Under the pieces are notes generated by a model that was given only the letters and a program-made list of their open reading frames with translations, was not told where the DNA came from and made no database searches. Position numbers and translations under genes: made by a program. 64,000 nucleotides of DNA from Gammaproteobacteria bacterium. GTDB taxonomy: Bacteria > Pseudomonadota > Gammaproteobacteria > VBWC01. Positions 19,632 to 32,634 of this stretch are shown here, piece after piece (the stretch's first letter is position 1; each line of letters begins with the position of its first letter). The stretch spans positions 9,939 to 73,938 of the forward strand of contig JAHFRU010000007.1 in the NCBI GenBank assembly GCA_023266115.1, written 5' to 3'.

Positions 19632-21095
19632 TCAGTGCACCGTTTTGACGAAGGCGCCAATGCGCCCGGGACAAGGCCAGCCATTCTTGCCCTTGTGTGG
19701 ATTGAGAGAACCATCATAAGACGAGCGCCTGAAAGTCTTGCCACATACCGTGCAGCGAAATACGTGCGTAGGCCCTTTGGAAGAGGATAATGGCCGCGTG
19801 GGTCTGTTATGTATAGTGAAGGGTTTCGCGATCCTCGGCCTACCCATTGACTGTCCCTCGATTGTCGGCGCCACCACAGGAGGCCCATCATCAGTTGGCT
19901 CGATGACGAAGCGAGGAATGAATGATCGACGTGTAGCCCTCGCGCCGGTGATTCGGTCAGCGCGATAGGCGCGCAATTCTCCTGTATCTACCTTGACCAC
20001 GTAGAACAGCAGGTTGCCCTCGCGGGTTCTCCACAACGTGTACGGCTCAACGGTGCGTGAACTTCTTCTGCCGCTCCCATCCCGATAATCGAGCTCCACA
20101 CACAGACGGTTCTCCGCCGCAAACCGAATCACCTCCAGCGGTGCCGAAACACCGAAACTACGCCAGGAAGTCGCCATGGCCGGCGGCCGCCACGAGATGT
20201 CGACCGGCTCCTCTTCTTCTTTGACGCGCATAACCGGAAGCTCGACTCGTGGCTTCTGCTCGAACAGCCAGGCAAAGACCTCCGGCAGCTCGCTCCAGAA
20301 GCTATCGAAGGGTGGTAGCTCAGGAAGTTGGTGGGCCAGCATCTGCTCCCATGCGGCGCGAAGCTCGCCCACGAGCGGCGACTCTCGAATCAACTGCAGC
20401 GTCGGAACCGGTATCGCTTTGAATTCGCACTTCTGCTGCAACGTCGAGAGAATTGCGGTGCGATCAGGCTCCAATTCTCGCCGGCGGTACAGGTCTACGA
20501 CATCATAGAGATCCCGCGGACGCAGTCTTTCAGCCAGCGCCCTGACCTTTTCCGCAAACACCTCTTCGAAGGAATAAGTAGTGACCACGATCCCGTCGGC
20601 AGGGCAATCGCTATAGGGGTGACGAACCTGCCTTCTGTCCGGGTCGAGCACGACACGTTCATCATCGGTCAGGTCAAGCTTGATGCGCGGTGCGTCACCC
20701 ACGCGTCCGAGCGGGCCCCGATAACCGATACGTCCTTCCGCCGATTTCCCGCCGCGAGGATTCGTGTACACATCCACCTTGCGCGTTTCCGGCGGCATGA
20801 CGAGCCCCGTCTGCTCGTAGACCCAGTCGGCGACTTCTTGAAAGAGTTTCCCAAGATACGCTTCGTCCAGATGTTTATGCTCAAGCAGCGTGAAGTCCAG
20901 ATCCTCGGAGAAGCGGTAGGTTTCGAAGAAACATTTCTTGAGACAGGTACCACCCTTGAAAAGCCATGAGTCGCGCGTGTCCGGGTGCTGACCAAAACCG
21001 GCCAGTAGCCAGCCCAGCGCATAATCCTTTTCAATGACATTTGACGCAAGACCGAAGTCTGCCGCCAGGTCGAGCATTTCCTGCCGCGGAATCAT
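19632..21095 (-). CDS. AbiEii/AbiGii-family nucleotidyltransferase toxin fused to a WYL domain and a C-terminal CxxC...H...C tail
   Basis: N-terminal NTase FKGGTCLKKCFFETYRFSEDLDF. WYL-like block LEVIRFAAENRLCVELDYRDGSGRRSSRTVEPYTLWRTREGNLLFYVV...LRAYRADRI. Tail FRCTVCGKTFRRSSYDGSLNPHKGKNGWPCPG. Its ATG at 21095 overlaps the abiEi stop (ATGA). Confidence 0.8.
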   Translation of the reverse strand: MIPRQEMLDLAADFGLASNVIEKDYALGWLLAGFGQHPDTRDSWLFKGGTCLKKCFFETYRFSEDLDFTLLEHKHLDEAYLGKLFQEVADWVYEQTGLVMPPETRKVDVYTNPRGGKSAEGRIGYRGPLGRVGDAPRIKLDLTDDERVVLDPDRRQVRHPYSDCPADGIVVTTYSFEEVFAEKVRALAERLRPRDLYDVVDLYRRRELEPDRTAILSTLQQKCEFKAIPVPTLQLIRESPLVGELRAAWEQMLAHQLPELPPFDSFWSELPEVFAWLFEQKPRVELPVMRVKEEEEPVDISWRPPAMATSWRSFGVSAPLEVIRFAAENRLCVELDYRDGSGRRSSRTVEPYTLWRTREGNLLFYVVKVDTGELRAYRADRITGARATRRSFIPRFVIEPTDDGPPVVAPTIEGQSMGRPRIAKPFTIHNRPTRPLSSSKGPTHVFRCTVCGKTFRRSSYDGSLNPHKGKNGWPCPGRIGAFVKTVH

Positions 21096-21925
21096 GGTGC
21101 TTGCCACCCCTCGGGCAGCCAAAGACGCCACGCCGTGACAAGTCGCTTGGCCGGCAGCGCCGGGTCCAGCTTGGCATTGCCTTTCGTGAGCGACCTGGCG
21201 CACTGCGCAATCGCCTCACGCTCGTCCGGTGCAAAGCGTTCCAGCAAATAGCCGAGCCGTTTGAACACGGCGCCTACGCCGAAGGTGTCCGCATAGGACA
21301 GGAGTTGTCCGACGTTTCGGTACTCCTTTGAGGCAAGATAGTTCTGCAGCATGTCAGCCGAAGACCGCAGCCCACCGCCGAGCGACGGATCTGACAGCAG
21401 ATCGATGATGGTTCGAGCAGGGTCGCTGACCTTCACCCGCGTTCGCCCACGCCAGATGGTCTTGAGCCCGAAGAACTCTTTTTCACTTACGGTGCGCAAA
21501 CGAAAAGCTATCCCCCCCATCTTCGGTTCACGGTTTCGAAAGCGGCGGGTTGTCGATACCTGCACTGTGCGAAAAACCTGCTCGGTCAGTCCCCAGTGCT
21601 CTGCGGCGCTCCAGCCGCTAATGAAGCAGGGAGCGAACGCCGCCTCGGCGATTACCCATGAATCTTCAGGGGACGGGTCTGCGCGCTCGCTTTCCAGGGA
21701 TACGGGGACGTAGATTCCCCGTCGCATCCGCTGTAACCAGCCTTGCGCGGCCCACCGCGAGAGCAGCTTCGCGGCATCGACTCGCGAAACCGATAAGACC
21801 TCCGCTGCCATCGCCGGGGTGACGGTACCGGTCGACTTGCGTAAGACTGCCGCTAGCTGCGCACGAGAGGCCTTTCCCAAGCCGGATAGGGACTGATCGG
21901 TATACTTTAGGCGCTTTTGTTCCAT
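21092..21925 (-). CDS. AbiEi-family type IV TA antitoxin (wHTH transcriptional regulator)
   Basis: 277 aa from the ATG at 21925. Typical AbiEi features are TPAMAAEVLSVSRVDAAKLLSRWAAQGWLQRMRRGIYVPV and GWSAAEHWGLTEQVF. The part of the ORF upstream of 21925 is hsdM-fragment and repeat sequence. Confidence 0.8.
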   Translation of the reverse strand: MEQKRLKYTDQSLSGLGKASRAQLAAVLRKSTGTVTPAMAAEVLSVSRVDAAKLLSRWAAQGWLQRMRRGIYVPVSLESERADPSPEDSWVIAEAAFAPCFISGWSAAEHWGLTEQVFRTVQVSTTRRFRNREPKMGGIAFRLRTVSEKEFFGLKTIWRGRTRVKVSDPARTIIDLLSDPSLGGGLRSSADMLQNYLASKEYRNVGQLLSYADTFGVGAVFKRLGYLLERFAPDEREAIAQCARSLTKGNAKLDPALPAKRLVTAWRLWLPEGWQAP

Positions 21926-21989
21926 TCCAGATGGAATTACAGCACTTCTAGTGTACTTTTTCAAGCCCTCTGGGCCCAACCGGCACGCC

Positions 21990-22325
21990 TTTGGAGATAA
22001 GGCTCGGCCAACTGTACATCGAAGGCACCGAGCTCTTTTGGTTATACGGCGCCTGCGACCGCCATGGATGGCGGAAGGTACGACTGCATGGATGCAGGAG
22101 GTACGAGTCCATGGATGGACGAGGTAGAGCGGCGTCTGGAACAGCCGCCGAGAGCAACGCATGGAGCAGTTGCCGAGGAGCGGCCTCGACATAATCGTCA
22201 TACGACATACCGTCGTGACCGGAGCGCAGCGCAGGAAATACTTGATGAACCCCAAAGGGGTTCTGAAGTGCGCGTAGGACGTTGCAGTAGTTCCAGAGTT
22301 TTTGGACGATAGTTGTAGTGTTCAT
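21990..22325 (-). pseudogene. 5' fragment of hsdM, disrupted by repeat insertions
   Basis: Encodes MNTTTIVQKLWNYCNVLR...DGMSYDDYVE...APYNQKS...WPSLI. These are the same blocks as the N-terminus of the full hsdM, interrupted by unrelated sequence and an R1-type repeat (22035-22160) and truncated at about 21990. Confidence 0.8.
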
Positions 22326-22367: not shown

Positions 22368-24263
22368 CTATGGTCCTTGCCACAGTTCACGCGCGAACTC
22401 AAATAGTTCTCGACTCCTTTGGTCAATAGAGCCCTCGTTCCATTCATGGGCGCGCATGAGTTTGCGATTAAGGTGGAGATTTGATTCTGCAAACAGAGCC
22501 TCTCGCTTACGATCAATCCCGTGATGTTGGAGACCTCTATTAACCCCATAGTGCAACAACGTGAGATTACCGATATTTACTTTTGCGTTTTCGCGTCGTT
22601 GGATTGCCGCGCTCCGGTCATTAGGTGCTGTTTCGAGAAACACATCCATCGCGGACTTCTCTAGCTCTTCTCTCGTTACGAAACTACCGTCTGTTAGCGG
22701 CCAATGCTCCAGCCAACTACTGGGCAGAATATGATCCACATCGAGCGCATCAAGAGCGAGAATAAGTGGCTCTTCTGTCCTCGCAGACCGCATCTTTCGT
22801 TCGAGCGATGCCAGTATTGATTTTGTGCGTGCTGCGTCAAGTCGTCCTGGGTACATTGCCGCCTCGAGCCATGACTTGCGAAACTCATCTTCGCGTGGCC
22901 ATCTGGACGCCGCTCCCTGCAATCCAGCCCGCGCTTTTCTCAACACCGCAGGCATCAGCTCTTCACCCGCGATATTCTTAAGCTGTTGGATAAATACCTT
23001 GTTGTAGTTCTTTGTCGTCAACCCACAGACTGCCCTGCGAACCAAGTAAGACTCAATGTCCGCGTACATAGCCGCCTGTTCAGTTTCGGTACATCCAGAC
23101 ATGGCCACTGCAAGCGCAAGAGGGTGCATTGTCGAGGCGTCCCAAGCTGCCACCTGCCGACCGAATCGTGCGATTGGCGTATCGCCCGTACCACTCACCA
23201 GTTGCCGATAGTGCTCCGAGTACTCATTCAGGATGCGCAATTGATCGCTTGCAGAAACTGTTGTCTTACGACCAACGGCAAATCGACGGTATCCGACGTA
23301 AAGTCGGCCGACGTCAACCTCTTCTCCCAACGCTGCCTGTAGCGCAGTTTGTATAAACCATTCAAGACGTGGCCGCTTGAGCCGACCACGACGCTGCTCT
23401 TCCGACCAGAATGTGCTTTCGAACGGGCTCCAGAGGGCATCATAGAGCTGGCCAGCGTCTGTGCCCTCTCGATCCGCGCGCATGAAAACGAAGTTACGTA
23501 TCAGATCGGTTGCATGTAGTTGCGCGCCGTGCCCATTGAGCGTTTCAAAGATAACTTGCGCATCATCGTCCTCACCCAGGGAGATCGTCACCATATTAAG
23601 GTCCTTTAATACGGCTTCGGTAATCGCAGTTGTACGCGCGATTCGCTCTGGGCCGTTCTCTTGGCCGATCCATTGCGTCATCTGTTCGTTGAAGTACCAA
23701 ATGGCCTCCAGCGCTGGCGGATGGTCGATACCAATTTTCCTGAGCCCACCGCCTTGGGTGAAGCTTTCCGGAAAGGTCTCGCGCAGTGAGGCCTTCTCGC
23801 GGGCCAGCATTGCTGCCTTATATGTAGATCGATCCCGAAATGTCGGCCACACCTTGAATACCTCTGTGTCCGGCTGTTCCATGGTTTCCGTATTTGGATT
23901 GGTAAGGCAGCCCTCAACTAGAAACAGCAGCGCCGCAGGGCCAGCGTCACGCAGAACGATCGCCAATGCCGCCAGCACATATTGAAGAGTCGTGAGGCGT
24001 TGTTGGCCATCGATTATGTGCAATGCCTCTACGCCCAATAGACCTCGACGTGGTTGGGGTTCTAGGACAGCGGCGCCTAAAAAGTGAGGGGCAGGCTGCG
24101 CGCCAGTTATTCTTCCCTCGGCTTTATCCTGAATATCTGCCCACAGCCGCTCCCACTGATCCTCCTTATTCCATACGTACGCACGCTGGTAAAATGGTAC
24201 ACGGTATTGCCGCCTATCTTGAAACAGCTGAAGCACTGCTATCGTTTCTGATTTCATGTACAT
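22368..24263 (-). CDS. DUF262/DUF1524 (GmrSD-like) type IV restriction-type nuclease
   Basis: 631 aa. N-terminal ParB-like DUF262 motifs FYQRAYVW and IIDGQQRLTTL. C-terminal His-Me/HNH-like DVDHILPSSW...NLTLLHYGVNRGLQHH. Confidence 0.85.
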   Translation of the reverse strand: MYMKSETIAVLQLFQDRRQYRVPFYQRAYVWNKEDQWERLWADIQDKAEGRITGAQPAPHFLGAAVLEPQPRRGLLGVEALHIIDGQQRLTTLQYVLAALAIVLRDAGPAALLFLVEGCLTNPNTETMEQPDTEVFKVWPTFRDRSTYKAAMLAREKASLRETFPESFTQGGGLRKIGIDHPPALEAIWYFNEQMTQWIGQENGPERIARTTAITEAVLKDLNMVTISLGEDDDAQVIFETLNGHGAQLHATDLIRNFVFMRADREGTDAGQLYDALWSPFESTFWSEEQRRGRLKRPRLEWFIQTALQAALGEEVDVGRLYVGYRRFAVGRKTTVSASDQLRILNEYSEHYRQLVSGTGDTPIARFGRQVAAWDASTMHPLALAVAMSGCTETEQAAMYADIESYLVRRAVCGLTTKNYNKVFIQQLKNIAGEELMPAVLRKARAGLQGAASRWPREDEFRKSWLEAAMYPGRLDAARTKSILASLERKMRSARTEEPLILALDALDVDHILPSSWLEHWPLTDGSFVTREELEKSAMDVFLETAPNDRSAAIQRRENAKVNIGNLTLLHYGVNRGLQHHGIDRKREALFAESNLHLNRKLMRAHEWNEGSIDQRSRELFEFARELWQGP

Positions 24264-24296: not shown

Positions 24297-25106
24297 TCAG
24301 GCAGAATGAATCTCTAGTAGCTCGACCAGCACGACTCTTACGAAATCGCGTACACGTAACACCTCGACCTTGTCCGTTGGCGTATGTGTTGAAACGCTTG
24401 AGCGCGTGTAAACACTTCTGACGAATGTCCCGAGTGACTCTTCGACTCCTTCGATAGCTGACTCAGCGGGTGCCGACACTGCCTTTGACGCGCCGCGACT
24501 TTTCAAGACGAAGCGAACCTTTTGTTTCATGGTAGGTCCGGTCGTATTTGGATCTTGTTTGTATCCCGGCATCTCAATTACATCTTCATCTGGGGCCAGG
24601 TAATCCAGTGTTTCCCTCAGCGCCTCTCGCAGATCAGTTGCTGGCCCACGCCATGACATCCTAGATGCGCTTTGGAGATCGGAGACCGCTTGCTGATACG
24701 AAAGAGCGGCTGATGGCACTATAGATTGGAGGGTCGCTACGATCTGCAAGTCTACCGACTCCAGCTTCTGTTTGTTGGCAGCAAGCGCAGAGGAGGACAC
24801 AACTTGGGCATCCATGGAAATAAGGCCTGACTTCGCGCCTGCAAGTAACTTTTGATAACTATTGGCACTACCACGCTTGTGACATAGACTCAACAACTCC
24901 TGCATATCCGAATCAACACGGCTAATGGCATCGCTCTGCTCTTGTTCACTTACGACGGACGGACGTACATCGTTAAAGTACCGTTCGACAAGCAGGCGCA
25001 ATCTATCTCGCTGTTTCTGAGAGTGGAGTTGTTGACCTTTTGCTTTGTTCAGCCCTCTTCGGGCATCCTCTACTTCCTGAATAAATGCTTGAAGATTTGT
25101 TGCCAT
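24297..25106 (-). CDS. Hypothetical protein X: N-terminal coiled region, C-terminal domain with HEPN-like R-x5-H motif
   Basis: 269 aa clean ORF, 5 bp downstream of gene Y. The C-terminal RSSVSTH is followed by a hydrophobic helix VLRVRDFVRVVLVELLEI. I can assign no family with confidence. Confidence 0.6.
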   Translation of the reverse strand: MATNLQAFIQEVEDARRGLNKAKGQQLHSQKQRDRLRLLVERYFNDVRPSVVSEQEQSDAISRVDSDMQELLSLCHKRGSANSYQKLLAGAKSGLISMDAQVVSSSALAANKQKLESVDLQIVATLQSIVPSAALSYQQAVSDLQSASRMSWRGPATDLREALRETLDYLAPDEDVIEMPGYKQDPNTTGPTMKQKVRFVLKSRGASKAVSAPAESAIEGVEESLGTFVRSVYTRSSVSTHTPTDKVEVLRVRDFVRVVLVELLEIHSA

Positions 25107-25111
25107 GGGCT

Positions 25112-25636
25112 TCAGGAGGATTTCTTAGCGGGCAGGCCATGGGCAACCAAGTTGTAACCGACTGCATTGAGTTTGTACTCTCCTCTTGCAGCCGTCTCGA
25201 AATACCCCGACTTCTTGGCATCCACCAATACTTGCGCCACTATCTTTGGGAGTTTGAAGTTTGCCTGCTTGAAATACTTTTCTATGTCCTGCGCAGAGAC
25301 AGTCTTCTTTCGCTCGCTTTCTGGAGCCAACTCCTGCAAGTAGTAGGCAACGATACACGCCATCTGCTTTGCTGAATCCGGATTCTTTTCCTCTTTGAGC
25401 GACCGTATATCGACTTTTTTTCCGTGGTGCTGCTGGGGCTGGTGATGTACTCCTGCCTCTGCCTGAACTGCCGGATACGCAGCACTACCCTGACCTTGCA
25501 TCTGCGGAGACAACTTCACGTTGAGATGCGCACAAGCAGCTGCAACAGCGGTGTTCCTGGCTTCCTGATCAAGTCCTTCTAGTGCAGAAATGATCGTGTC
25601 AATTGCTTGACCAAGCGTGGGTTTCGTATCCGACAT
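25112..25636 (-). CDS. Hypothetical protein Y: helical N-terminus, Q/H-rich linker, C-terminal winged-helix-like domain
   Basis: The ATG at 25636 is preceded by AAGGAG with a 7-nt spacer. The TTG start in the ORF track (25660) is less likely. It lies 20 bp downstream of the hsdS stop. AT-rich codon usage. Confidence 0.6.
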   Translation of the reverse strand: MSDTKPTLGQAIDTIISALEGLDQEARNTAVAAACAHLNVKLSPQMQGQGSAAYPAVQAEAGVHHQPQQHHGKKVDIRSLKEEKNPDSAKQMACIVAYYLQELAPESERKKTVSAQDIEKYFKQANFKLPKIVAQVLVDAKKSGYFETAARGEYKLNAVGYNLVAHGLPAKKSS

Positions 25637-25656
25637 GCGTTTCTCCTTTTTCCCGT

Positions 25657-27151
25657 TCAATATGCGGTTCTAGTCACTGGTTGCCCGGCTACTTGTCGCT
25701 GATCAATCAAAAGTCCACCGGAAAACGCCTCACAAAGGATCGATTGGCGCATACGTTCAGCGCGCCTGTAGTTGGTGTCGACTTGCACCTCGACTTCAGT
25801 GACAAGTGAAAGGCGGCGTTCAACTTCCGCAACGAGCCGATTCTGCTCAGCGACGGGCGGCAGAGGAACCGGGAATGCACTTAGCTTTGTGAGGTTGATA
25901 GATGCAAGATTCGTTGTCTGCTTACCCTCCCGCAAGAAATAGTCCTTGCCAAAGGAATTCCCCCACCATGACACGAGCTTCGGCGAAACCTCGCTCAAGA
26001 AAAGTCGCGCGCGGAAAACGTGGTTTTGATGGATGCAATCGGTCAACTGCCCTTCCCAAATCCAACCGCGACCAAGCTTGTCGCGGTCTCCACCTTCGTT
26101 GAAGAGAATGTCGCCACGCTGCAAGCGTAGCTCTTTTATGTCGGATTCTGGTGCATCAATGAATTTCACTTCGGAAAGATCGAGATAGCCGCGCTGGACA
26201 TTAGCAACACGAAGATACGCTACTGACCGAGCAGTCGAGTCTTTGCGCTTGCTATCGACGGTAATCCCGCCTTTGAGTGCAGCGATTACATCGAGTCGCG
26301 CCCACACCCACCCCTCTGGCAATTCAGGCAGATCGGTGGTGTCTGGCGCTGTAGGTTCTTTGTATTTGCCCTTGCCTTTCCACTGGCTGCGGCGGGTTTC
26401 GAGGATGCGTTGCAGGAGTTGCTCGCCGGTCTCAAAGCTGCGTACCTCTCGACGTGCAATCTCGGCTTCGGTTTCGACGAGGCGGCCTTCGACGGCGGCT
26501 TTGAGGACGGCGGCTTTGTAGCGCTTGAGGTTGACCTTGACGCGCTTGAGGTCGGCGACGGCTTCGTCGAGGCGGGAGAATTGTTTTTCGATTTCCGCGA
26601 CGATGCGTTTTTGTTGGTCGAGGGGGGGCGACGGGAATCGTGGCTTCTTTTAGATAGGTAGTTGAAACACGCTTCTGACCTACAGCACCCGTCATGTACC
26701 GTTCTGCCTCGCCACGGAATGACTGACTTGAAACGTAGTAGTAAAGATACTTGGCGTCGATTCCAGCCTTTGGTCTGAGCACATGGAACTCGGTTGAGCC
26801 AAAACCGTAGCCGTTAACAAGTTTCGGAACAACGGCCATCTTTCCGTTTTCCATACAGGGTGTAATCTTGGCAAAAAGAACGTCGCCCTCAAGAAATGCT
26901 GTAAATCCTTTTTTTACTTCACGCGCTGGTCGCGATTCATCAACGTGAATTGAGCCATCACCTGCACCAACCGCAGGCATCGGAACAAACGACACGGGCA
27001 AGTCATCGGCAATCACCGATTTGTCGAGGCGTGGATTGACGTCGGCGATCTGCTCAATGGGCAGCGCTGGCCATACGTCTTGGCCCGTCGCTTTGTCTTG
27101 GTGGGTTACGGCCTCCGGCCTAATCCACCCTACATTTTTATGATTCGTCAT
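25657..27151 (-). CDS. hsdS: Type I R-M specificity subunit HsdS, interrupted by a +1 frameshift at a C7 (plus-strand G7) tract
   Basis: TRD1 is 27151-26640 (...TEFHVLRPK...IPVAP). After the homopolymer at 26622-26628 the central conserved helix LDQQKRIVAEIEKQFSRLDEAVADLKRVKVNLKRYKAAVLKAAVEG continues in another frame. That frame runs into TRD2 and the C-terminal conserved region (25657-26322). Removing one C restores a single ORF. Confidence 0.85.
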
Positions 27152-27335: not shown

Positions 27336-28361
27336 TCATTTCTTCTTCGCCGGTTTGTCACTCGGCAACCGCTTGATGGCCTGATCGAAGTCGAGCTCGA
27401 CGCGGCTCGGTACCGCGAGTTGTTGTTTGCGGAATTTATCGTATTCCTGTTCGGCCTTATCCAGCGCTTCCTGGTGCGACACGTTCCCCGCGTGGGTGAG
27501 GATGTCGCGTTCGCCAAGGCGCAGGAAGTCGTCGAGTTTGGCGATCCAGTTTTTCATGTACATGGGTTTGCGGCTGCGCGCTTGTAGCTCGGCGAATTCG
27601 AGATAGCCGTTGACGATGCGGTTGAGCGTATCGAGTTCTTCGGCATTGAGATAATTCTTGGCGATAGCGGCGTCTTCCTTACGCGGTTGGCTTCCTGCCC
27701 ATGAGGTGAGGCCCATGTTTGCCTTCCCGGCATCAGCGCGCTCAACTATGACTTCGGCGGCGGTTTGGCCGTGCGCGGCCCAGTGCATTTTGTTTTGTAC
27801 GGTGGCAAAGAAAAGTTGCGAGGCTTCTTCCGCCGGGCCGTAGTCGATACTGGTGGCGTAGATGTCCAGCACTTTGCGCCAGAAAACTTTCTCCGAAGAG
27901 CGGATGTCGCGAATGCGCGCGAGCAGCTCGTCGAAGTAGTTGCCGCCACCGCCGCGCTTGAGGCGTTCGTCATCGAGAGCGAAGCCTTTGATGATGTATT
28001 CGCGCAATTGCTGCGTAGCCCAGATGCGGAATTGCGTGCCGCGATGGGATTTGACGCGATAGCCGACAGAGATGATGACGTCGAGGTTGTAGTGAGCGAC
28101 ATCGCGCTCCACCTGCCGTTTGCCCTCGCTTTGAACTATCCGGAAATTCCGGATAGTTGGTTCCGGGGTTAGTTCACCCTCTTCATAGACATTGCGTATA
28201 TGTTCGCTGATGGTGCGGACGTCCTTCTGAAACAGCTCGGCCATCTGCTTTTGAGTCAACCAGACGGTTTCGCCCTGAAAGGTTACCTCCAACCGAGTTC
28301 TTCCGTCCTCGGTCTGGTAGAGGATGAATTGGCCGGTGGATTCGTTGTTTTCTTTTTTCAT
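27336..28361 (-). CDS. rhuM: RhuM-family protein (DNA-binding protein commonly embedded in type I R-M loci)
   Basis: 341 aa. N-terminus FILYQTEDGRTRLEVTFQGETVWLTQKQMAELFQKDVRTISEHIRNVYEEGEL and the body are typical of the RhuM family. Confidence 0.8.
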   Translation of the reverse strand: MKKENNESTGQFILYQTEDGRTRLEVTFQGETVWLTQKQMAELFQKDVRTISEHIRNVYEEGELTPEPTIRNFRIVQSEGKRQVERDVAHYNLDVIISVGYRVKSHRGTQFRIWATQQLREYIIKGFALDDERLKRGGGGNYFDELLARIRDIRSSEKVFWRKVLDIYATSIDYGPAEEASQLFFATVQNKMHWAAHGQTAAEVIVERADAGKANMGLTSWAGSQPRKEDAAIAKNYLNAEELDTLNRIVNGYLEFAELQARSRKPMYMKNWIAKLDDFLRLGERDILTHAGNVSHQEALDKAEQEYDKFRKQQLAVPSRVELDFDQAIKRLPSDKPAKKK

Positions 28362-28364
28362 GGC

Positions 28365-31322
28365 TTATGCCGCTAATGTCTCGTTCAGTTCCTCGATGAT
28401 TGTATTCAGGTTGTCGCCGAATATCTGATGCACTTTGCCGAGGCCGCCTTCTTGGGTGAACGGCGGCAACTCGAAGTCATCCGCCTCGATGCTGAGATTC
28501 GCTGCGATGTGGTCGCGGATCATTTCGAGCCAACGAATTTGTTCTGCGGTGAAAGGCTCTGTAATTCCTGGACCCCGGCTTTCGCCGGGGTGACGGCCTT
28601 TTTGTTGGGTCGCGAGCCAGGCTTTGAAGTTGGCGTTGACGCGCTCGGGGAACGGGATGAGTTCGTTGTCCTGATGGATGGCGAAGCGCACGAGCGACAC
28701 GAGGTCAGTGAGGATACGTTTGCCGCTGGCGCCTTTGACCCTGGATTTTTCCAGCGCGGCGTAGGCGTTCCAGAGCTGGGATTCGTTCCACAGGTAGGGC
28801 GGTTTTTCGATGGCGTCGGCGAGTTCTTTCACGGCCTCGAAGGTGAGGCGGTGTTTCCAGGGTTTGCTGTAGAGCACTTGCAGGGCGGTGATTTCGTCTT
28901 TGTGTTCTGCAATGAATTGCTCGAAGGATTGGACCATGCCTTTGGCGCGGGCCAGGGCTTCGGGGGAGAAGGTGGCTTCGAGGACTTCGTCGGCGCTGAC
29001 GTGGTCGATGGTGATTTCGGTTTTGGCTTTTAGGTCAATCAACAATTGGCGCAGGGTTGGGTCGTGCAATGGTTTGACGGCGGCTTGCACGATTTGGCTG
29101 CGTTGCGCTTCGCGGTTGGGCGCCTGCGGCGCGGCTTGTACCCCCTCACCCCCGCCCTCTCCCGGAGGGAGAGGGGGTTGAGTTATGGCCTCGTCGATGG
29201 CATCGGGGTTCAGCGCTTGGACGATGCGATGCGCTAAATCTTTGAGGCCGTAGCCGCCGCTGGCGGCGCGAATCTTTTTGTCGTCGTCGGCGCTGATGCG
29301 GTGTTCCATTCTGGCCAGGCGGCCGGCGAGTGAGGTGAGTACGTCATCCTCGGTGTTGCCGAAGGCGACGGCTTGCATGAGTTTCTCGAAGCTGACGGTG
29401 GGCTTTTGCTCCATCGGTCTCGAATCGGTCTTGTCCTGCTCGCACACGCCAACGGCGTCGACGATGACGAAGTGGTCCTTGGCTTTGGCGTCGGGGGTGA
29501 CGCTTTGCAGGTCGTCGGCCTTCATGATGCGCACGCCGCGGCCTTTCATCTGTTCGAAGAAGGCGCGGGATTTGACAGCGCGCATGAAGAAAACGACCTC
29601 CACCGCCTTGATGTCGGTGCCGGTGGCGATCATGTCTACCGTGACGGCGATGCGCGGCATGGGGCTGGTGCGGAATTCGTTGATGAGGTCTCTCGGTCTC
29701 GCGCCTGTTGTTTTGTACGTAATTTTCTGCGCGAAGTCGTTTCCCTTGCCGAATTCCTCGCGCACGATCTCGACGATGTTTTCGGCGTGGGCGTCGTCCT
29801 TGGCGAAGATGAGGGTCTTGGGCACCCAGGTGCGGCCGGGGAAGATTTCGGTGAACAGTTTGTCGCGGAAGGTGCGGACAATGGTGCGGATCTGGTCCGG
29901 GGCGACCACGTCGCGGTCGAGCTGGTTGGGGTCGTAGTTGAAGTCGTCGTCGAGCTGTTCCCAGCGCTTCTTGCGGGTGTCGCGCTCCATGATCTGCACG
30001 GCATAGCCGGATTCGACTTTTGAACCGGCCTCGGTGATCCGGGTGCGGATGCGGTAGACGTCGTAGTTGACGTTGACGCCGTCGGCCACGGCCATTTCGT
30101 GGTTGTATTCCATCACCAGGTTCTGCTTGAAGAACCCGAAAGTCTGCTTGCCGGGCGTGGCGGTAAGGCCGATGAGGTAGGCATCGAAGTATTCCAGCAC
30201 CTGTGCCCAGAGGTTGTAGATGGAGCGGTGGCATTCGTCGGTGACGATGATGTCGAAGGTTTCGATGGGGATGGCCGGGTTGTATTCGATGGGCTCAGGC
30301 TGTTTGAACAGGCTGCCGAGTTTATCCACTGATTCTTCTTCGAGGTCTTCGGGCAGGTCCCTGCCCTTGAGTATGGAGTACAGGCGCTGGATGGTGCAAA
30401 TGCAGACCCGCGCGGTTTTATCGAGCGTGCTGCTCGACAGGCGCTGGACGATGTATTCCTCGGTGAACTTGAAGTTGTTGTAGGGCGAGGCGTATTGCTG
30501 GAATTCCTTGAGCGTCTGGTCGCCGAGGTTGCCGCGGTCCACCAGGAACAGCACGCGCCGCGCGCCGGCGAATTTGATGAGCCGGTAGATGAACGATATG
30601 GCAGTGAAGGTTTTGCCGGAGCCGGTCGCCATCTGGATCAGCGCGCGCGGGCGGTTTTGCTTGAGCGATTGTTCGAGGTTGTGGATGGCGGTGATCTGCG
30701 CGGGCCAGAGGCCTTCTACGATCAGCGGCGGCATGTGTCGCAGGCGGGCGAGGAAGGTAGCCCCCTCTCCCCAACCCTCTCCCGGAGGGAGAGGGAGAGC
30801 AGAAATTGGTGTCGCTTCTGCGACGTTTCCCCGGGATGCGCTTTGCTTATCCCAGGCTACATCCAGTAATTTCGCCAGAGCGGCCGGTGTGTGAAACGCA
30901 AACACAGGACGTGAACGCGGTTCCGGGTCCAGGCCGTTGGTGAACTGGGTTTCGATGCCGGTGGATTCGTACGCGAACGGTAACGGCCGCGACCACGCGG
31001 GTAATCCGCCCGGCAAACCTTTGGTGTATTTGTCCGATTGAATTTCCACGCCCTTGAGCGTTGTGCCGGCTTTCTTCGCTTCAATGACACCTGCGGCTTT
31101 GCCATCTATATAAAGAAGGTAATCCGCCGCGCCGTGTCCGGGCAGCGGGAATTCCTCAATCGCGACGCCGCGCGCAGCGTGAATATTGGCCTGATCGGCG
31201 GCGCAGACTTCCCAGCCGGCCAGTGTGAGCAACCGGTCGATTTTCGAACGCGCTTCCTGTTCTGGTGTGGCGCCTGGCGTCACTGTGGCTATTCCCTCCC
31301 CCGAGAGGTGGAATCGTAGCAC
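28365..31322 (-). CDS. hsdR: Type I restriction endonuclease subunit HsdR (SF2 helicase-nuclease), with two in-frame palindromic-repeat insertions
   Basis: Walker A MATGSGKTFTAI, DEAH-type box TDECHRS, helicase C motifs, conserved C-terminal domain. The true start is probably the GTG at 31283 behind GGGAGGG. Sequence upstream of that is shared with the 32.5 kb duplicate. Confidence 0.9.
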   Translation of the reverse strand: MLRFHLSGEGIATVTPGATPEQEARSKIDRLLTLAGWEVCAADQANIHAARGVAIEEFPLPGHGAADYLLYIDGKAAGVIEAKKAGTTLKGVEIQSDKYTKGLPGGLPAWSRPLPFAYESTGIETQFTNGLDPEPRSRPVFAFHTPAALAKLLDVAWDKQSASRGNVAEATPISALPLPPGEGWGEGATFLARLRHMPPLIVEGLWPAQITAIHNLEQSLKQNRPRALIQMATGSGKTFTAISFIYRLIKFAGARRVLFLVDRGNLGDQTLKEFQQYASPYNNFKFTEEYIVQRLSSSTLDKTARVCICTIQRLYSILKGRDLPEDLEEESVDKLGSLFKQPEPIEYNPAIPIETFDIIVTDECHRSIYNLWAQVLEYFDAYLIGLTATPGKQTFGFFKQNLVMEYNHEMAVADGVNVNYDVYRIRTRITEAGSKVESGYAVQIMERDTRKKRWEQLDDDFNYDPNQLDRDVVAPDQIRTIVRTFRDKLFTEIFPGRTWVPKTLIFAKDDAHAENIVEIVREEFGKGNDFAQKITYKTTGARPRDLINEFRTSPMPRIAVTVDMIATGTDIKAVEVVFFMRAVKSRAFFEQMKGRGVRIMKADDLQSVTPDAKAKDHFVIVDAVGVCEQDKTDSRPMEQKPTVSFEKLMQAVAFGNTEDDVLTSLAGRLARMEHRISADDDKKIRAASGGYGLKDLAHRIVQALNPDAIDEAITQPPLPPGEGGGEGVQAAPQAPNREAQRSQIVQAAVKPLHDPTLRQLLIDLKAKTEITIDHVSADEVLEATFSPEALARAKGMVQSFEQFIAEHKDEITALQVLYSKPWKHRLTFEAVKELADAIEKPPYLWNESQLWNAYAALEKSRVKGASGKRILTDLVSLVRFAIHQDNELIPFPERVNANFKAWLATQQKGRHPGESRGPGITEPFTAEQIRWLEMIRDHIAANLSIEADDFELPPFTQEGGLGKVHQIFGDNLNTIIEELNETLAA

Positions 31323-31473: not shown

Positions 31474-32484
31474 TCATCCTCTTTCGCCGTCCTCCTGAAG
31501 CAGATTCAGAATCAACCGAACCAGCAGTTGCTTGTGCGCCGGGTCGCTCGCGGCGACGAGCAAGGCGACGGCGACCAGCGCGTTATCGGCAAAACGTGGT
31601 GTTCCATCGGGTTTGGTCAACACACCGTTGCGATCGAGGTAAAGCAGAAACAGGAGACTGCCGACGCGTTTGTTGCCATCGGAAAACGGGTGATCCTTGA
31701 TCACGAAATATAACAAGTGTGCAGCGCGTGATTCGACACTCGGGTAGAGCATTTCACCACCGAATATTTGCTCGATGGCGCCCAGAATACCGTCCAGCGC
31801 GTTGCTCCGCTCCTGCCCGAATAACGCGGTGGCTTCGTTCTTCGCAATAAGCGACTGTTTCAGTCTCACGATGGCATCGCGGCACGCTTTGGGTGATAAA
31901 CCCGCAACGGGCGGCGTCGGGCGCGCGGGTACTTCGGGCAGACGGTTTTCGTCGTATTGCAACAGCAAGCGCCACGAGCGGGCATAGTGCGTCACTACAT
32001 CCAGCAGCGCCCTGCCTTGATCGTTAACCATCTCTTGCGCGGACAACGTTTTTGCCAGCAGACGCACGGCCGTCTCCATTTCGGTGAGGCCCTTTTCCCG
32101 CAGGCGGCGCTCGTTGAGCGTGTAGCCCCGGACCAGATGATCGCGGAGCGTGCGGGTGGCCCAGATGCGGAATTGGGTGCCGCGTTGGGATTTGACCCGG
32201 TAGCCCACGGAAATGATGACATCCAGATTAAAGAACCTGACGGGCTTGTCCGAACCTGCAATGTGCAAATTTTGCACATTGCTTTCTTCGTCCAGCTCGT
32301 CCTCCTTGAATACGTTATTGATGTGCTTGGTGATAACTGAGCGTTCCCGGCCAAACAGCTCAGCCATCTGCGCCTGGGTCAGCCAAACGGTGTCACGCTC
32401 CAGACGCACGTCCAGTCGGATTTGGCCGTCCGGGGCTTCAAACAGCGCGACTTCTCCACCGGGCCGGGGGTCGTTTTTTCTCAT
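31474..32484 (-). CDS. RhuM-like N-terminal domain fused to a Doc-type Fic domain (death-on-curing family)
   Basis: N-terminus VALFEAPDGQIRLDVRLERDTVWLTQAQMAELFGRERSVITKHINNVFKEDEL parallels RhuM. The C-terminus carries HPFSDGNKRVGSLLFLLYL, which is the Doc variant of the Fic motif. I prefer the ATG at 32484. Confidence 0.8.
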   Translation of the reverse strand: MRKNDPRPGGEVALFEAPDGQIRLDVRLERDTVWLTQAQMAELFGRERSVITKHINNVFKEDELDEESNVQNLHIAGSDKPVRFFNLDVIISVGYRVKSQRGTQFRIWATRTLRDHLVRGYTLNERRLREKGLTEMETAVRLLAKTLSAQEMVNDQGRALLDVVTHYARSWRLLLQYDENRLPEVPARPTPPVAGLSPKACRDAIVRLKQSLIAKNEATALFGQERSNALDGILGAIEQIFGGEMLYPSVESRAAHLLYFVIKDHPFSDGNKRVGSLLFLLYLDRNGVLTKPDGTPRFADNALVAVALLVAASDPAHKQLLVRLILNLLQEDGERG

Positions 32485-32634
32485 GCGAGTCGATGCCTGT
32501 TGTTCTGGTGTGATGGTACTACTGGTCGCCCTTCCTGACGTATTGAATCGTAGCACGCGGGGAGTGATGGGGAATATTTTGGGCGGGCGGACCAACGGTG
32601 GTTTGCTATCAGTAATTGTACTGCCCGACCGGTT

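Follow-up and report, generated by a model that had tools for sequence, protein, structure and literature searches.

Two adjacent genes, here called Y and X, lie on the minus strand of a 64,000-nucleotide stretch of DNA from a Gammaproteobacteria bacterium (GenBank assembly GCA_023266115.1, contig JAHFRU010000007.1; hereafter, the window), between hsdS of a type I restriction-modification (R-M) operon and a gene encoding a GmrSD-type restriction enzyme. Y and X constitute a co-inherited, translationally coupled, and occasionally fused pair; the cassette they form is horizontally mobile, and one of its lineages has been captured by a type I R-M operon, with which it now travels. By score, X is a member of the Pfam family PF18165, but without the Argonaute context implied by the family name, and its partner Y carries a predicted winged helix-turn-helix (wHTH) domain. 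We tentatively favor, at somewhat less than an even chance, the reading of Y and X as an autonomous two-gene cassette that moves horizontally, is of the toxin-antitoxin (TA) or abortive infection (Abi) type, and is fixed in R-M operons in one clade. As a candidate TA-like or anti-phage system, Y-X is a reasonable but unproven proposal.

The pair is arranged in the window as follows:

24297..25106, minus strand: gene X, an open reading frame (ORF) of 269 aa, encoding a PF18165 (pP_pnuc_1) family protein, the putative effector.

25112..25636, minus strand: gene Y, an ORF of 174 aa counted from ATG, encoding a partner protein without a named family.

25643..25648, minus strand: Shine-Dalgarno sequence AAGGAG, 6 nt upstream of the Y ATG, read from the sequence.

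Y has an alternative start, a TTG 8 codons upstream of the ATG (25112..25660), which would give a protein of 182 aa, and a GGAG-type site precedes the Y ATG by 5-9 nt in most related loci. The hsdS stop codon (25657-25659) is separated from the Y ATG by 20 nt, the Y stop from the X ATG by 5 nt, and the X stop from the ATG of the GmrSD gene (24263) by 33 nt. An earlier note, made from the letters of this DNA, had described the two minus-strand ORFs with these positions and spacings, as well as the AAGGAG site before Y, and the ORFs and the sequence confirm both descriptions. It had also called the segment AT-richer than the backbone on hand counts of 48 vs 65% GC; the direction holds (50.7% GC for Y+X vs 58.9% for the window), whereas the counts themselves proved rough. 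The GC content of third codon positions (GC3) is 0.49 in X and 0.54 in Y, compared with 0.76 in hsdR and 0.80 in hsdM. No promoter-like site was found on the coding strand near Y-X in the window, and terminator-like sites around the pair were no more frequent there than in shuffled sequences; Y and X are therefore most probably transcribed together with the surrounding R-M operon.

Both are real genes, since X has 1,386 homologues (about 268 aa long) and Y has 1,395 in a 90% cluster database, two counts that are nearly equal; an exhaustive X profile search collected 767 clusters at the 50% level. When one genome from each of 185,579 species was scanned, 61 loci emerged, in 52 of which a Y homologue is encoded directly upstream of X, so the co-occurrence beyond this genome on which the earlier note had staked its proposal is borne out. 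Among the remaining nine loci, two are cut by contig ends, five have a variant architecture lacking Y, and two are fragments. Taxa with the pair include Nitrospira, Actinomycetes, Omnitrophota, Planctomycetota, Dojkabacteria, Acidobacteriota, Verrucomicrobiota, and Gemmatimonadota, as well as Alpha-, Beta-, and Gammaproteobacteria. From the Y stop to the X start, 45 of 47 loci have a spacing of -4 to +13 nt, as is usual for translationally coupled genes, and in one metagenome-assembled genome of Acidobacteriota (L029, 6987-8693, plus strand) the genes are naturally fused in frame, with Y at residues 104-265 and X at residues 318-567 of the stop-to-stop ORF. Small co-directional genes that overlap or are minimally spaced and are inherited together make up the layout of two-gene TA and Abi systems, and one of the partners has a DNA-binding fold, the winged-helix topology of Y in its AlphaFold2 (AF2) model.

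Pfam and PADLOC scans of 262 neighboring proteins, together with all-against-all clustering of neighbors within 6 kb at ~52 loci, revealed no conserved third gene beside Y-X. The sole recurrent neighbors were HsdR, HsdS, and HsdM, and enrichment of defense islands around standalone pairs was rejected because only these type I R-M subunits recur. The supposition that the pair occupies a position where defense systems cluster thus stands for the type I R-M embedding seen in one clade but not for most Y-X pairs, which are located in unrelated neighborhoods. At one locus (L002), Y-X lies between transposase and integrase genes; at another (L006, 5035-8396), a menaquinone biosynthesis operon is interrupted in its middle by a MNT (Polbeta)/PF05168-type HEPN pair together with Y-X and a fragment of an IS200-like Y1 transposase. 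The cassette is considered horizontally mobile because of these two settings, its low GC3 compared with the hsd genes, and the absence of a conserved third gene. The insertion in L006 leaves a small ECH_1 (MenB) fragment.

The order hsdR-(cargo)-hsdS-Y-X-(cargo)-hsdM, with an HsdR of the EcoEI_R_C type, is shared by 11 loci (the window, L001, L003, L009, L010, L011/L073, L070, L072, L074, L077, and L078), and Y overlaps the hsdS stop codon in L001, L070, L074, and L078. In a neighbor-joining tree of 56 X proteins, the R-M-embedded copies group into a single clade, just outside of which L074 branches, while L039 represents an independent adjacency to R-M. Some 40 of the 56 X lineages stand alone, R-M genes being absent within 6 kb of them, so that the module is autonomous. 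The following cargo occupies the slot after X:

GmrSD in the window and L001.

Phd/ParE in L070.

A 169-aa protein and Fic in L078.

DUF6880 in L073.

Nothing in L003, L072, and L074.

HEPN and other toxins have been described embedded in R-M operons, and "guilt by embedding" is predictive, the position inside a type I R-M operon being an accepted indicator of a defense function (PMC3710099; bioRxiv 10.1101/2024.01.29.577857). The embedded clade could also be read in terms of a PrrC-like guard, in which Y-X would be silenced by HsdS/M/R and would fire when a phage anti-restriction protein disables restriction. In the 11 loci of this one clade, Y-X always comes right after hsdS, often overlapping its stop codon, and remains constant while the slot cargo differs between loci; precedents are found in PrrC-EcoprrI and in 16 R-M-linked HEPN clades. 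We nevertheless regard such a guard as unlikely: the standalone lineages indicate that the module works without R-M, X contains no ABC-ATPase domain (nor does Y contain an ATPase domain), and in the window hsdS is frameshifted, yet Y and X are intact. A broader proposal, which we consider similarly improbable, makes PF18165 a portable effector recruited by various sensors, Argonautes in some cases and Y here; Y-X would then be an Argonaute-independent immune module and, in the hsdS-hsdM clade, a PrrC-like fail-safe acting when type I restriction is overwhelmed or inhibited.

It is quite unlikely, in our estimate, that Y-X is a plain addiction (TA) module stabilizing genomic islands or operons and having no anti-phage role. 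Two small overlapping genes with the DNA-binding partner first, a patchy distribution resembling that left by horizontal gene transfer, and other TA pairs nearby, namely HigBA, BrnTA, RES-Xre (L001), Phd/ParE (L070), and MNT/HEPN (L006), are all consistent with addiction; however, Y-X is absent from 72,556 plasmids, in which addiction modules tend to be common, no palindromic operator above chance was found upstream of Y in 19 standalone loci, and both the Y-X fusion and the helix-turn-helix (HTH)-like N-termini fused to the X domain are unusual for systems with a labile antitoxin. A TTGGG motif upstream of Y was considered as an operator and rejected, being sporadic.

The autonomous TA/Abi-type cassette that we prefer depends on X as the effector. 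X matches PF18165 ("predicted pPIWI-associating nuclease") with 43.7 bits and an E-value of 2.7e-11, the gathering cut-off being 26.3, and the PADLOC Aga_Nuclease model with 3.3e-8. PF18165 is matched by 51 of 51 X relatives scanned (best E-value 2.8e-15), by all 120 homologues listed from the 90% cluster database, and by all ten architectural variants scanned. The earlier note had been unable to place either protein in a family, which no longer applies to X but still applies to Y. No PIWI/Argonaute family was present among the Pfam-annotated neighbors in 16 annotated look-ups. A full-text literature search found no paper mentioning the PF18165 family names, and none was found that mentions the Y-X pair; the 2013 paper on pPIWI-RE has no description of the domain.

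The AF2 model of X, based on a 51-sequence alignment (mean predicted local distance difference test score, pLDDT, of 77), is all-alpha, in agreement with the long helical sequence noticed earlier; helices are predicted at residues 2-21, 30-51, 59-77, and 81-114 in the N-terminal part and at 117-144, 153-170, 193-203, 213-232, and 246-264 in the C-terminal part. The following parts can be distinguished:

24792..25106, minus strand: N-terminal helical domain of X (~residues 1-105), found in the Y-paired form only.

24309..24764, minus strand: C-terminal PF18165 domain of X (~residues 115-266), a portable conserved module.

24384..24404, minus strand: R235-S-S-V-S-T-H241 (R-x5-H), a candidate catalytic motif, from sequence and conservation.

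Comparison with divergent relatives places the portable module at X residues ~105-267. It is joined to unrelated N-termini in the alphaproteobacterial loci L056, L061, L062, L064, and L065, and also in the representatives P0274, P0275, P0282, P0286, P0303, and P0349. Several of the substitute N-termini look HTH-like by eye, those of the five alphaproteobacterial loci and of P0275 and P0303 have no Pfam match, and the Y gene is missing in the variants. In 23 divergent C-terminal domains, residues Q139, D143, S151, R153, G154, R160, E161, R164, E165, D168, D173, P191, Q195, K196, R230, Y233, and H241 are invariant. The R-x5-H motif that the earlier note had pointed out in YTRSSVSTH lies just before the last helix of X and is conserved: R235 and H241 are both invariant in the 51 close relatives, and in the divergent domains H241 is retained in 23 of 23 and R235 in 22 of 23. 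Sixteen invariant polar or charged residues, together with this near-invariant motif, count in favor of an effector role for the domain.

Y belongs to no described family: it has no Pfam match above the cut-off and no PADLOC or NCBIfam match, PADLOC-DB 2.0.0 contains no model for it, none of its homologues in the 90% cluster database carries a Pfam domain, and its only PHROGs matches have E-values of 0.095 and 0.24. Its architecture is as follows:

25517..25624, minus strand: N-terminal two-helix region (~residues 5-40), from the alignment and AF2 helices 8-19 and 24-37.

25418..25507, minus strand: low-complexity, Q/H-rich linker (residues 44-73), unalignable, of varying length, pLDDT <50.

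25127..25414, minus strand: C-terminal winged-helix domain (~residues 75-170), AF2 pLDDT ~90 or more.

The N-terminus is conserved as TLGQAIDQII..ALEGLD..AR.TAI.AAC.HL., and the C-terminal domain has the order H-beta-H-H-beta-beta-H in the AF2 model. Most top Foldseek matches of Y are winged-helix proteins or domains (CRP/FNR, MarR, IclR, the MCM8 WH domain, and forkhead), with probabilities of 0.75-0.95 and E-values of 0.16 or worse, which are poor because the query is mostly linker. The AF2 model and Foldseek thus agree with the helical N-terminus, linker, and C-terminal winged helix read earlier from the sequence. Because the variants that lack Y are precisely those in which another sequence takes the place of the N-terminal domain of X, we infer that the N-terminal helices of Y dock on this domain.

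The earlier note had further likened X to HEPN ribonucleases (RNases). The HEPN fold comprises four helices in an up-down bundle, of which helix 2 carries a conserved acidic residue; inserts between helices 2 and 3 are frequent, and the motif lies at the end of helix 3 or at the start of the loop to helix 4 (PMC3710099). Laid on this plan, X offers helices 131-144 and 153-170, an insert at 171-212, helix 213-232, the stretch R235-SSVST-H241, which falls within the Rx4-6H pattern of HEPN, and helix 246-264; the invariant residues R160, E161, R164, and E165 are carried by helix 153-170, where the acidic residues have the spacing R-E-x-x-R-E, compared with the HEPN-typical Ex3[K/R]. What stands of the likeness is therefore the conserved motif and the fitting order of helices, whereas no match to any HEPN family, structure, or profile was obtained. 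The residue after R235 is Ser in 22 of the 23 divergent domains (Thr in one) and nearly invariantly so in the 51 close relatives, in place of the N, D, or H usual in HEPN proteins, and the motif stretch (residues 226-240) is modeled with pLDDT <50, as are residues 206-221. No HEPN family figured in the list of the 25 Pfam families matched most often by the 51 members (E-values up to 10), and PDB searches with profiles of full-length X and of its C-terminal part returned no HEPN protein. Foldseek searches with the AF2 model of X likewise gave no HEPN protein, neither among the 50 matches listed from PDB (best E-value 0.28) nor in BFVD. When the X C-terminal profile was aligned by hhalign with that of the PF05168 HEPN family, built from the MNT-linked gene in L006 and the sole HEPN family compared profile-to-profile, the probability was 1.6%. 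Assignment of X to HEPN by similarity of sequence or fold was accordingly rejected, every profile and fold comparison being negative. HEPN families are notoriously divergent, and because of this divergence and the single family compared in that way, membership is unproven rather than excluded. The odds that the PF18165 domain of X is a HEPN-like RNase appear roughly even, the motif and the modeled helix order being what speaks for it. The domain may instead have another chemistry or a ligand-binding role, since it has far more invariant charged residues than a typical HEPN domain.

X might also not be an enzyme at all; PF18165 would then be a helical adaptor or a nucleic-acid-binding or nucleotide-sensing domain like the EH-signature protein ZorC of Zorya, and Y-X a sensor or regulatory pair whose effector is encoded elsewhere. 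No fold or profile links X to any nuclease, and its invariant helix rich in R, E, and D could bind phosphate or metal instead of catalyzing. Weak matches to EH_Signature (PF15611, the ZorC domain) were obtained in 18 of the 51 relatives, in the N-terminal region, corresponding to X residues 13-142 (window 24681-25070) and profile positions ~52-172. These matches are below the cut-off, with a best E-value of 6.6e-4 among the 51 relatives and 12.9-16.6 bits against a cut-off of 27.5 in ten relatives scanned singly; they come from related sequences and so are not independent, no ZorC chain was among the PDB profile search matches of X, and the similarity may reflect mere helical composition. No other candidate effector is conserved beside Y-X, and the combination of an invariant His and a near-invariant Arg, both in a flexible loop preceding the last helix, is typical of an active site. 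A non-enzymatic X seems distinctly unlikely to us.

If the TA/Abi-type cassette is correctly read, its PF18165 domain would be the effector nuclease, most plausibly a metal-independent RNase of HEPN build using R235 and H241, with the invariant E161/E165 helix assisting their catalysis. The N-terminal helices of Y would bind the N-terminal domain of X and keep X in check, the winged helix of Y would bind nucleic acid, either to sense foreign DNA or to regulate, and a signal of infection or stress would free X. In the R-M-embedded clade, the cassette could serve as a second layer behind restriction, with GmrSD, AbiE, RhuM, and Fic/Doc as further, independent cargo.

Several points weigh against this reading, in addition to those raised above on HEPN. 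No toxicity or phage phenotype of Y-X is known, and the nuclease activity of PF18165 is a prediction carried by the family name; no solved structure or characterized relative of the family was found, including in the PDB profile searches. One divergent homologue (L062) has Leu at the R235 position. With 61 loci in 185,579 species genomes, the family is rare, and it is absent from the phage, plasmid, and viral-contig collections searched. Outside the R-M clade its neighbors are heterogeneous and do not obviously form defense islands, and no operator-like palindrome above the level of shuffled sequences was detected upstream of Y in 19 standalone loci.

The genes bordering the pair in the window lie outside the module:

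25657..27151, minus strand: hsdS, frameshifted, the upstream neighbor (Pfam Methylase_S).

22368..24263, minus strand: GmrSD-type type IV restriction enzyme, the downstream neighbor (GmrSD_N and GmrSD_C; PADLOC mREase_IV, 3.9e-192).

The GmrSD gene, whose DUF262/DUF1524 product the earlier note had suggested as a possible third component, is independent cargo and not a component of the module. A three-component Y-X-GmrSD system, which might be suggested by the 33 nt separating X from the co-oriented GmrSD gene in the window and by an identical gene order in L001, was rejected by co-occurrence and is extremely improbable, since GmrSD follows X in only two of the 11 R-M-embedded loci and in none of the standalone ones, its protein is a complete single-chain enzyme by the mREase_IV match, and enzymes of this type are known independent cargo of type I R-M loci (PMC11411939), such independent defense genes riding in these operons explaining its presence beside X.

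Pfam and PADLOC identify HsdR, RhuM, HsdS, GmrSD, AbiEi/AbiEii, HsdM, and a RhuM-Fic/Doc fusion around the pair, in agreement with the AbiE, GmrSD, RhuM, and Doc neighbors named earlier within a type I R-M operon. A frame switch near 26621-26637 divides hsdS into two ORFs; the intact HsdS proteins of L003 and L009 align with frame -1 to ~26621-26630 and with frame -2 from 26637. HsdS may be inactive or phase-variable in the window, and the R-M system with it; a sequencing error is also possible. The genes of an AbiEi/AbiEii(+WYL) pair (19632-22325, minus strand) separate GmrSD from hsdM. The first ~66 hsdM codons recur as a diverged duplicate at 21990-22325, and in the closest relative (L001) hsdM directly follows GmrSD; the AbiE region seems to have inserted into the 5' end of hsdM, duplicating the target. 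A full RhuM-family gene (27336-28361, minus strand) is found between hsdR and hsdS, and a fusion of a RhuM N-terminus with Fic/Doc (31474-32595, minus strand) just upstream of hsdR; this is the combination of R-M, RhuM, and Doc known from the HEPN survey (PMC3710099). Within hsdR, two in-frame, G+C-rich copies of a 35-nt element (29141-29175 and 30761-30795) are 91% identical and contain the palindrome CCCTCTCCC-GGA-GGGAGAGGG; no copy would be expected by chance, and there are no further copies in the window. Both copies lie in linkers unlike the HsdR of L001, encode PLPPGEG(W/G)GEG, and resemble a repetitive extragenic palindromic (REP) or miniature inverted-repeat transposable element (MITE) tolerated within coding sequence.

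If Y-X is active, it would provide the first function for PF18165, so far a computational prediction, would show that an "Argonaute-associated" domain works without Argonaute, and would add a compact two-gene system to the defense and TA modules housed by type I R-M operons. The R-M-embedded clade, with its constant cassette and varying cargo, represents a natural experiment on cooperation with restriction vs hitch-hiking. If Y-X is inactive or a mere addiction module, it would be one more uncharacterized passenger of defense loci. Uncharacterized embedded cassettes are numerous; Y-X is well defined and widespread, its nuclease activity and role in defense being inferred.

Among the closest known systems is PF18165/Aga_Nuclease itself, with the C-terminal domain of X exceeding the curated cut-off and matching an Argonaute-associated PADLOC model; in contrast, the Y-X neighborhoods inspected contain no PIWI or Argonaute protein, and the partner is a wHTH protein. 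Agap-HEPN of Alteromonas macleodii is co-encoded with a prokaryotic Argonaute and combines an unassigned domain with a HEPN domain that requires its Rx4H motif (R262/H267) to cleave RNA (PMC11162769). By analogy, it could illustrate what a "pPIWI-associating nuclease" looks like; as compared by description, its spacer has 4 residues vs 5 in X, and Agap works with Argonaute whereas Y-X occurs without it.

With the R-M-embedded HEPN RNases (PrrC/EcoprrI; DUF3644/EC042_2821, that is, HEC-08), X shares an R-x5-H motif where the penultimate helix ends, invariant acidic residues in the conserved helix before it, a lengthy insert separating the two, the position in a type I R-M operon, and an association with wHTH, which in some HEC-08 members is fused to HEPN. 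It differs from them in having no statistical similarity to HEPN, in the Ser instead of N, D, or H after the Arg, and in lacking the ABC-ATPase of PrrC and the Zn-ribbon of HEC-08, and the wHTH of Y-X is located on a separate polypeptide. AbiE, consisting of the wHTH antitoxin AbiEi and the toxin AbiEii, and other type II/IV TA pairs resemble Y-X in that two neighboring genes overlap, the first encoding a winged-helix partner and the second a putative toxic effector, and in their patchy distribution; an AbiE pair is present in the operon of the window. Neither Y nor X resembles AbiE in sequence, the effector domain is PF18165 and not a nucleotidyltransferase, no operator palindrome was found for Y-X, and natural fusions occur. 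TgvAB and other GmrSD-type systems are likewise independent defense genes carried in type I R-M operons (PMC11411939), but they are based on DUF262/DUF1524 and have no domain in common with Y or X. Y-X thus resembles R-M-embedded HEPN toxins and AbiE-like pairs and is a demonstrable member of neither; its new part is a known predicted effector domain in an Argonaute-free partnership with Y, partly fixed in type I R-M operons.

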